From Eledone cirrhosa (lineage: Eukaryota), in the NCBI GenBank assembly GCA_964016885.1, contig OZ024742.1, positions 324,012,001-324,076,000 of the forward strand: a stretch of DNA of 64,000 nucleotides. The letters are read 5' to 3'. Under the pieces are notes generated by a model. It did not search any database and had not been told where the DNA came from. It saw only the letters and a list, made by a program, of their open reading frames with translations. Of this stretch, positions 5,548 through 6,027 are shown one piece after another; the first letter of the stretch is position 1; the number at the start of each line of letters is the position of its first letter. The translations under genes and the position numbers were made by a program.

Positions 5548-5604
5548 GATATATATATATAGAATATATAAGTATTAGAATTGGTGCTCTGAAATAGCGA
5601 TATA

Positions 5605-6027
5605 TATATGAATGTATATATATAGTGTATTTTGCAATATACTGTATGCTTAATTAAAAGCATTTTGAAGACCTTACGCTATTGTTTTAAAGTAGTGACT
5701 ATGTCACTTACTTCTTTTTTCAGAGCACCAATTCTAATTTTCAATTTTTGCTGGACCGGCAACCGCTCTGTATAATCAGTTCCTGATTATTATTGGAATT
5801 CTATAAGAATCCAACATTCATAATTTTCAACAAACAAGGGGAGTGCTAAGCTCTGAGGAATACCAACAGTATGAAACAGAGATCTGTCAGCTTATCTCCT
5901 TTTGTTTGTTGAAAAAAGAAGTAAGTGACATAGTCACTACTTTAAAACAATAGCATAAGGTCTTCAAAATGATTTTAATTAAGCATACAGTATATTGCAA
6001 AATACACTATATATGCATTCATATATA
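5605..6027. repeat. Inverted-repeat cassette (~115-bp arms 5605-5720 / 5911-6027) enclosing a hammerhead
   Basis: The arms are near-perfect reverse complements (agtagtgactatgtcacttacttctttttt / aaaaaagaagtaagtgacatagtcactact). Confidence 0.9.
5847..5894 (+). ncRNA. Type I hammerhead ribozyme
   Basis: taagct-CTGAGGA-atac[caaca]gtat-GAAAC-aga[ga]tct-GTC-agctta. All core nucleotides are present with a GUC site, and stem I extends a further ~20 bp. Confidence 0.88.

Follow-up and report, generated by a model that had tools for sequence, protein, structure and literature searches.

A hammerhead-bearing, non-coding repeat family of Eledone cirrhosa as a non-LTR retrozyme probably copied by Penelope-like element enzymes

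According to the accessible parts of the papers cited here, metazoan non-LTR retrozymes are non-coding repeats with low-GC monomers of 150-450 bp and a type I hammerhead ribozyme, which range from monomer to multimer in genomes that hold Penelope-like elements (PLEs), and their mobilisation by PLEs has been proposed (PMC7229834; 10.64898/2026.07.22.740005). They are expressed as circles, with PLEs as the proposed carriers (PMC7229834), and one of nine Xenopus retrozyme dimers cleaved in vitro (10.64898/2026.07.22.740005). Retrozyme mobilisation by PLEs has so far been argued mostly from co-occurrence and repeat homology. Poseidon, Neptune and Hydra PLEs share partial tandems, an inverted 5'-truncated copy, a short tail often found at one end, (TA)n targets with no readable target-site duplication, a type I hammerhead whose stem III is palindromic and, close to that ribozyme, a donor-like motif (PMC8557442, PMC3846280, PMC4209133). 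Hammerheads with a short palindromic helix III act as dimers (PMC4209133), and the inverted copy with a one-sided tail is described as general to PLEs (PMC8557442, PMC3846280). The insertion ends that we describe bear on how PLEs make such copies.

The repeat family reported here is likewise non-coding, with low-GC monomers within that length range, equipped with a type I hammerhead and found as monomers to multimers, in a genome that contains PLEs of both Neptune and Hydra type. Judged by these features, it belongs to a known class, the metazoan non-LTR retrozyme. Circular expression has been demonstrated in published retrozymes and is a prediction for this family. The PLE link in Xenopus consists of co-occurrence and homology to the pseudo-LTR (pLTR) of PLEs (10.64898/2026.07.22.740005); here it consists of insertion ends, and no parent pLTR was found. 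Back-to-back concatemer arms and the two-site end rule set out below are not described in the accessible text of PMC7229834, in which the word "inverted" has no occurrence, or in that of 10.64898/2026.07.22.740005. Literature searches turned up no publication that describes either this family or the paired-end rule, and subscription papers and supplements may bear on it. Taken as a sequence, the element adds one more retrozyme to those known from animals; what makes it valuable is how its insertions end.

The window, the whole stretch of 64,000 nucleotides that was analysed, contains one copy of the subfamily that we call A, with the following features.

5549-5573, no strand: TA-rich flank, likely a remnant of the (TA)n target
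5574-5722, minus strand: inverted, 5'-truncated arm, unit positions 192 to end plus 1-21
5574-5594, minus strand: 21-nt tail, the beginning of the next unit (a small inverted repeat in the sequence-only reading)
5718-5722, no strand: arm-to-arm junction, 5 bases of microhomology common to both arms
5718-6027, plus strand: direct arm, covering positions 1-309 of the ~318-bp monomer unit, subfamily A
5824-5915, plus strand: type I hammerhead by sequence and fold, 26-bp stem I broken by a UGC/U loop
5824-5843/5896-5915, plus strand: outer stem I, 20 bp
5847-5852/5889-5894, plus strand: inner stem I, 6 bp, separated from the outer stem by the UGC/U internal loop
5853-5888, plus strand: core with stems II and III and GUC, predicted cut 3' of C5888
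5853-5859, plus strand: core strand CUGAGGA
5860-5872, plus strand: stem II, 4 bp, CAACA loop
5873-5877, plus strand: GAAAC
5886-5888, plus strand: GUC triplet
5921-5926, plus strand: GTAAGT donor-like motif, by sequence

An initial sequence-only reading had seen a hammerhead core with a GUC triplet in an extended stem I, and the sequence, the fold energy and shuffled controls bear it out. The type I hallmarks are all present (core CUGANGA/GAAA/UH, three helices, helix I open), and we predict that 5824-5915 is a type I hammerhead with cleavage after C5888. In the window copy the hammerhead fold evaluates to -33.2 kcal/mol and the minimum free energy structure to -34.0, 0.8 kcal/mol apart; the hairpin has a z score of -5.4, equalled by none of 200 shuffles, and the core pattern occurs twice in the window and not once in 100 shuffles of it. 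Stem III of this copy has 4 bp (ACAG/CUGU, AGAU loop) and is near-palindromic, with a computed self-dimer energy of -10.0 kcal/mol. In folding, the hammerhead hairpin stays intact when the outer inverted repeat pairs. Stem II of the window copy starts with A-U where G-C is usual, which counts against the explanation that we prefer, and the Rfam models gave no hammerhead match at the gathering score or at E values up to 10.

A genome search with 5720-5930 returned 2,188 candidates in the 3.0-Gb genome, the 40 scored being 96-100% identical. The sequence is far from the single-copy state that had been named as an outcome to speak against the sequence-only reading. At the best 30 loci the unit of ~318 bp runs from 5718 to ~6027, passes a short AT run and restarts; across the family its length is 310-321 bp, and it is non-coding. 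There are at least four subfamilies, of which A to D were counted by exact marker matches, with none for reversed-pattern controls: 201 for A, 1,342 for B (core UUGAUAA), 553 for C (short stem III) and 14,929 for D, which is 310 bp long and has a GUA triplet and a stem III reduced to a minimal palindrome; a junction marker for A-C has 5,136 matches. A is 86% identical to B, 79% to C and 65% to D. Subfamily D, the youngest and most abundant, would amount to ~4.6 Mb if every one of its matches marks a whole unit, a recent force in this genome. Head-to-tail multimers with two or more hammerheads occur as dimers in B, as 3.5 units in C and as up to 9.9 units in D; at the 30 A loci inspected, arms reach at most 1.8 units. 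Weak unit-profile or core-scan matches also led to other hammerhead families (L104:8554-9616, L221:2242-2658, L230:2816-3006, L100:8482 and L101:607), one of them tandem with a spacing of ~480-510 bp.

The hammerhead third is the most diverged section of the unit in all six subfamily pairs (54-75% against 65-91%). Two-sided changes are found in 31 of 34 base pairs, and 90.9% of cells pair as against 41-55% in slid controls (72 distinct sequences), in an alignment that was itself fitted to the hammerhead model and in which changes are shared by descent inside subfamilies. Among 69 parsed copies, 44 have C-G as the core 3-8 pair, 23 have U-A and two have a mismatch there; the B loci in this tally came mostly from a search pattern that itself contains the U-A core. 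Sequence comparison indicates that the RNA structure of the hammerhead is under selection, and its cleavage is predicted. Neptune-type PLEs (L091, L093, L099, L103, L105 and L032:2200-2250) have minimal hammerheads with a CCGG palindrome and a U3-A8 core, which is the swap also seen in subfamily B.

Insertion anatomy was read from 113 cases, 97 distinct insertions of A-C (A from the best BLAST matches, B and C mostly from the matches that come first along contig C1) together with 16 stretches of D. In 73 of the 113, two arms lie back-to-back and their 3' ends both point outward, in most cases into (TA)n; L028 and L029 have a common junction and may be a single event, and the other 40, L133, L218 and L219 among them, are one-armed or irregular and do not enter the arm count. 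Partial tandem, inverted 5'-truncated copy, tail and microsatellite target are all insertion marks of PLE type. The ends fall at two sites ~30 nt apart: a tail site ~21 nt beyond the unit junction, and a tail-less site within the final ~25 nt of the unit, which merges with the TA run of the target. In 57 of the 61 insertions with both ends classed, one end has the tail and the other lacks it; two of the exceptions are tail/tail and two are neither. Against independent choice the binomial p value is 2e-13, for end classes that were defined post hoc and a list of two-armed insertions that was read by hand. One end lies elsewhere in the remaining 12 of the 73. All ten two-armed D insertions follow the rule, with one haplotype in both arms. 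Arm junctions show an overlap of 1-16 bases in 38 of the 73, abut in eight and have a gap in 27; in L207 and L216 the overlap falls in the self-complementary outer stem.

The arms differ from the inversions of L1. In L1 twin priming, second-strand priming on the RNA and joining by microhomology produce an inversion in which the second site varies and the inverted part comes from further upstream; retrozyme arms both start at near-fixed 3' sites and each can exceed one unit. They also depart from PLEs, since the retrozyme lacks an ORF, its repeat comprises the entire unit, arms hold up to 9.9 identical units and the tail extends 21-26 nt past the junction. The end rule favours two primings on sense RNA, whereas PMC3846280 derives head-to-head junctions from self-priming on an antisense template. 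A biochemical parallel is purified Anolis Poseidon protein, which in vitro nicks and extends both strands of an AT-rich target; its start points are two neighbouring internal sites, which mark the limits of the tail (PMC11167929). The accessible text of that study reports no start-site difference between strands, and the paired ends of single insertions and a non-autonomous template lie outside its scope.

The explanation that we consider probable is that this element is a non-LTR retrozyme, non-coding and ~318 bp long, which is copied in trans by the reverse transcriptase and endonuclease of a PLE, likely from a one-unit RNA circle. Multi-unit arrays would be transcribed, and their hammerheads would cut out monomers, probably as dimers formed through the palindromic stem III, which a host ligase would close into circles. 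The PLE protein would nick a (TA)n target on each of its strands, and each target 3' end would prime reverse transcription at one of the two internal RNA sites ~30 nt apart. Each enzyme would then continue round the circle by rolling-circle copying, and the two cDNA ends would be joined at short homologous stretches and serve as templates for one another, leaving a head-to-head palindrome.

The template can be narrowed further. A linear monomer cut by the hammerhead is excluded, because the 3' ends lie ~140-170 nt past the cut site and the copies read through it. That intact passage of genomic copies through the cut site would also suit a long linear transcript that spans several units and is left uncleaved, or two RNAs of a single source array, used by the same enzyme with the hammerhead as a passenger or assisted by protein. 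Uncleaved RNA is the main substrate of Poseidon in vitro, and hammerhead mutants still insert (PMC11167929), so a circle is not required in principle; in addition, one locus, L061, joins Neptune-type and retrozyme arms, so that two RNAs can supply two arms. We nevertheless judge such a template unlikely, because compensatory change keeps the hammerhead and because the D arrays are uniform. The arms of D are concatemers in which locus-specific variant sets (three variants in L206, four in L207 and three in L216) recur in every unit of both arms; at least six such sets each fill a whole insertion, and none of the 16 D stretches is clearly mixed. Such uniformity, seen for six haplotypes or more, speaks for a bottleneck of one unit and against a long uncleaved transcript. 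With A arms as short as they are, the evidence for rolling-circle copying comes mainly from D, only 65% identical to the subfamily of the window. Across subfamilies, arms are more alike within than between loci in 52 of 58 comparisons (4.0% against 6.2%), a likeness that neighbouring arms could also owe to gene conversion or hairpin repair in the recent past.

Amplification at the DNA level alone, as satellite or fold-back DNA spread by unequal crossover and hairpin repair with no RNA step, would account for the perfect tandem arrays and palindromes that exist in this family, and for two further structures: a tandem of a 163-bp ribozyme-less deletion variant (L172:4383-4989) and, ahead of an A copy, an array in which the 3' end of the unit recurs as a 38-bp stutter (L025:115-1424). 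It fits poorly with dispersed insertions that have fixed 3' ends, variable 5' truncation and (TA)n targeting, with a one-tail rule common to the retrozyme and to ORF-bearing PLEs, and with a ribozyme that covaries. Insertion anatomy and end pairing largely refute it, and we regard it as very improbable.

A more specific proposal, which we advance tentatively and with somewhat less than even confidence, is that one dimeric PLE protein primes both (TA)n strands on a single RNA circle, always one strand per site, so that the two enzymes chase each other round and produce palindromic concatemers. If true, it would account for the inverted copy and the one-sided tail throughout the endonuclease-positive PLEs and would tie animal retrozymes mechanistically to PLE enzymes. 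The end rule allows a direct test, in which a 310-nt circle, a (TA)n target and PLE protein should give one start site per strand and multi-unit cDNA. The ~15,000 young units would also be a built-in source of double-stranded RNA, likely A-to-I edited. Between L206:2700-3100 and run X4, seven differences absent from run X1 are all A>G or T>C, the kind of run being unrecorded and the samples different; these X4-only differences hint at A-to-I editing of double-stranded D RNA. In run X5, labelled organism B, a single 340-base contig consists of one D unit closed on itself, which an array and a circle fit equally.

PLEs are abundant in this genome, with 10,596 GIY-YIG candidates, of which 150 were scored; the Neptune-type ORFs carry reverse transcriptase and endonuclease, and Hydra-type ORFs are present by the motifs given in the accessible part of PMC8557442. 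The sequence-only reading had compared the window feature with a solo Penelope pLTR, and the Penelope-type inverted copy, tail and (TA)n are indeed there. A solo or 5'-truncated pLTR of an autonomous PLE would come with just the hammerhead, donor- and acceptor-like motifs, tail and inverted copy that we see, since all are pLTR features (PMC8557442, PMC3846280), and PLE sampling was partial, at 150 scored candidates and 68 screened loci. The units, on the other hand, continue head-to-tail through the junction: of 92 distinct unit junctions, 41 lead into a next unit, 43 into microsatellite, eight into other sequence (five variant units and three plain insertion ends) and none into an ORF. Nor did screening by BLAST, covariance model or nhmmer, with a profile of the unit among the searches, find an ORF-bearing element with a homologous terminal repeat in the 68 PLE-associated loci; 30 of these were GIY-YIG loci, 18 were of Hydra type and 20 were longer PLE stretches. 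We hold the pLTR reading to be improbable as an account of what the element now is. The retrozyme likely descended from an ancient pLTR, a statement about its origin and not its present identity.

Every strong match in the 68 loci was a retrozyme insertion of its own within a TA tract (L032/L110, L091, L098, L108 and L236). The one in L032, 0.9 kb behind a Neptune-type ORF, was considered as a pLTR and rejected, as the Neptune-type element has its own hammerhead and its end before the TA tract. Local alignment of the unit with nine PLE 3' ends gave low scores of 27-57 and z up to 5.6, likely AT-repeat matches, and was discounted.

Two leads to a partner PLE, both weak, are a chimera and a Hydra-type family. 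In L061:1307-1920, 280 bp of a Neptune-type 3' end (98.9% identical to L095), which contains a 31-bp fold-back, stand back-to-back with a B arm; this chimera could instead stem from a deletion between neighbouring insertions. The Hydra-type family is represented in the window by a young PLE 3' end at 29540-30050 with a hammerhead at 29988-30021. It has 2,721 candidates, the best 40 at 98-100%, and in L235 and L237 the end of an endonuclease-bearing ORF lies 3.0-3.7 kb upstream. Its hammerhead matches that of subfamily D at 24 of 28 bases, and in five of the six inverted pairs seen one arm has a 68-nt tail and the other is tail-less.

The GTAAGT at 5921 had been read as an intron donor. The motif is present, in 28 of 30 A copies, and in tandem copies an acceptor-like TTTCAG lies at the unit junction ~120 nt downstream; it is at most a candidate donor, D lacks it, and the predicted spliced junction has no genomic match. 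That last result is uninformative, because PLEs keep introns. The contigs of runs X1, X4 and X5, three of the five listed and of unrecorded kind, contain no GT-AG joint and no end pile-up, and none of the 13 listed joints is of GT-AG type. GTAAGT may be left over from the intron of an ancestral pLTR, and mobility does not require it.

At the window copy, the two inverted repeats noted earlier both exist, the outer at 5603-5722/5910-6027 (120 nt, 95.8% identity) and the small one at 5574-5594/5718-5738 (21 nt, 100% identity), as parts of one inverted arm (unit 192 to end plus 1-21) and not as separate repeats. The inverted arm is without a hammerhead and terminates at the tail site, and the direct arm terminates at the second, tail-less site, so the insertion obeys the end rule; no target-site duplication is readable. 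This copy is likely a dead-end product, and it cannot release a monomer alone because it has one hammerhead. Directly to the left of it, at window positions 4572-5555, lies an inverted pair of ATC-ended repeats, and 6500-7100 to the right resembles what we take to be the decayed end of a LINE reverse transcriptase. A weak tRNA match of 32.6 bits on the minus strand at 57668-57740 is likely the head of a tRNA-derived SINE, and the sequence at ~6370-6440 resembles it.
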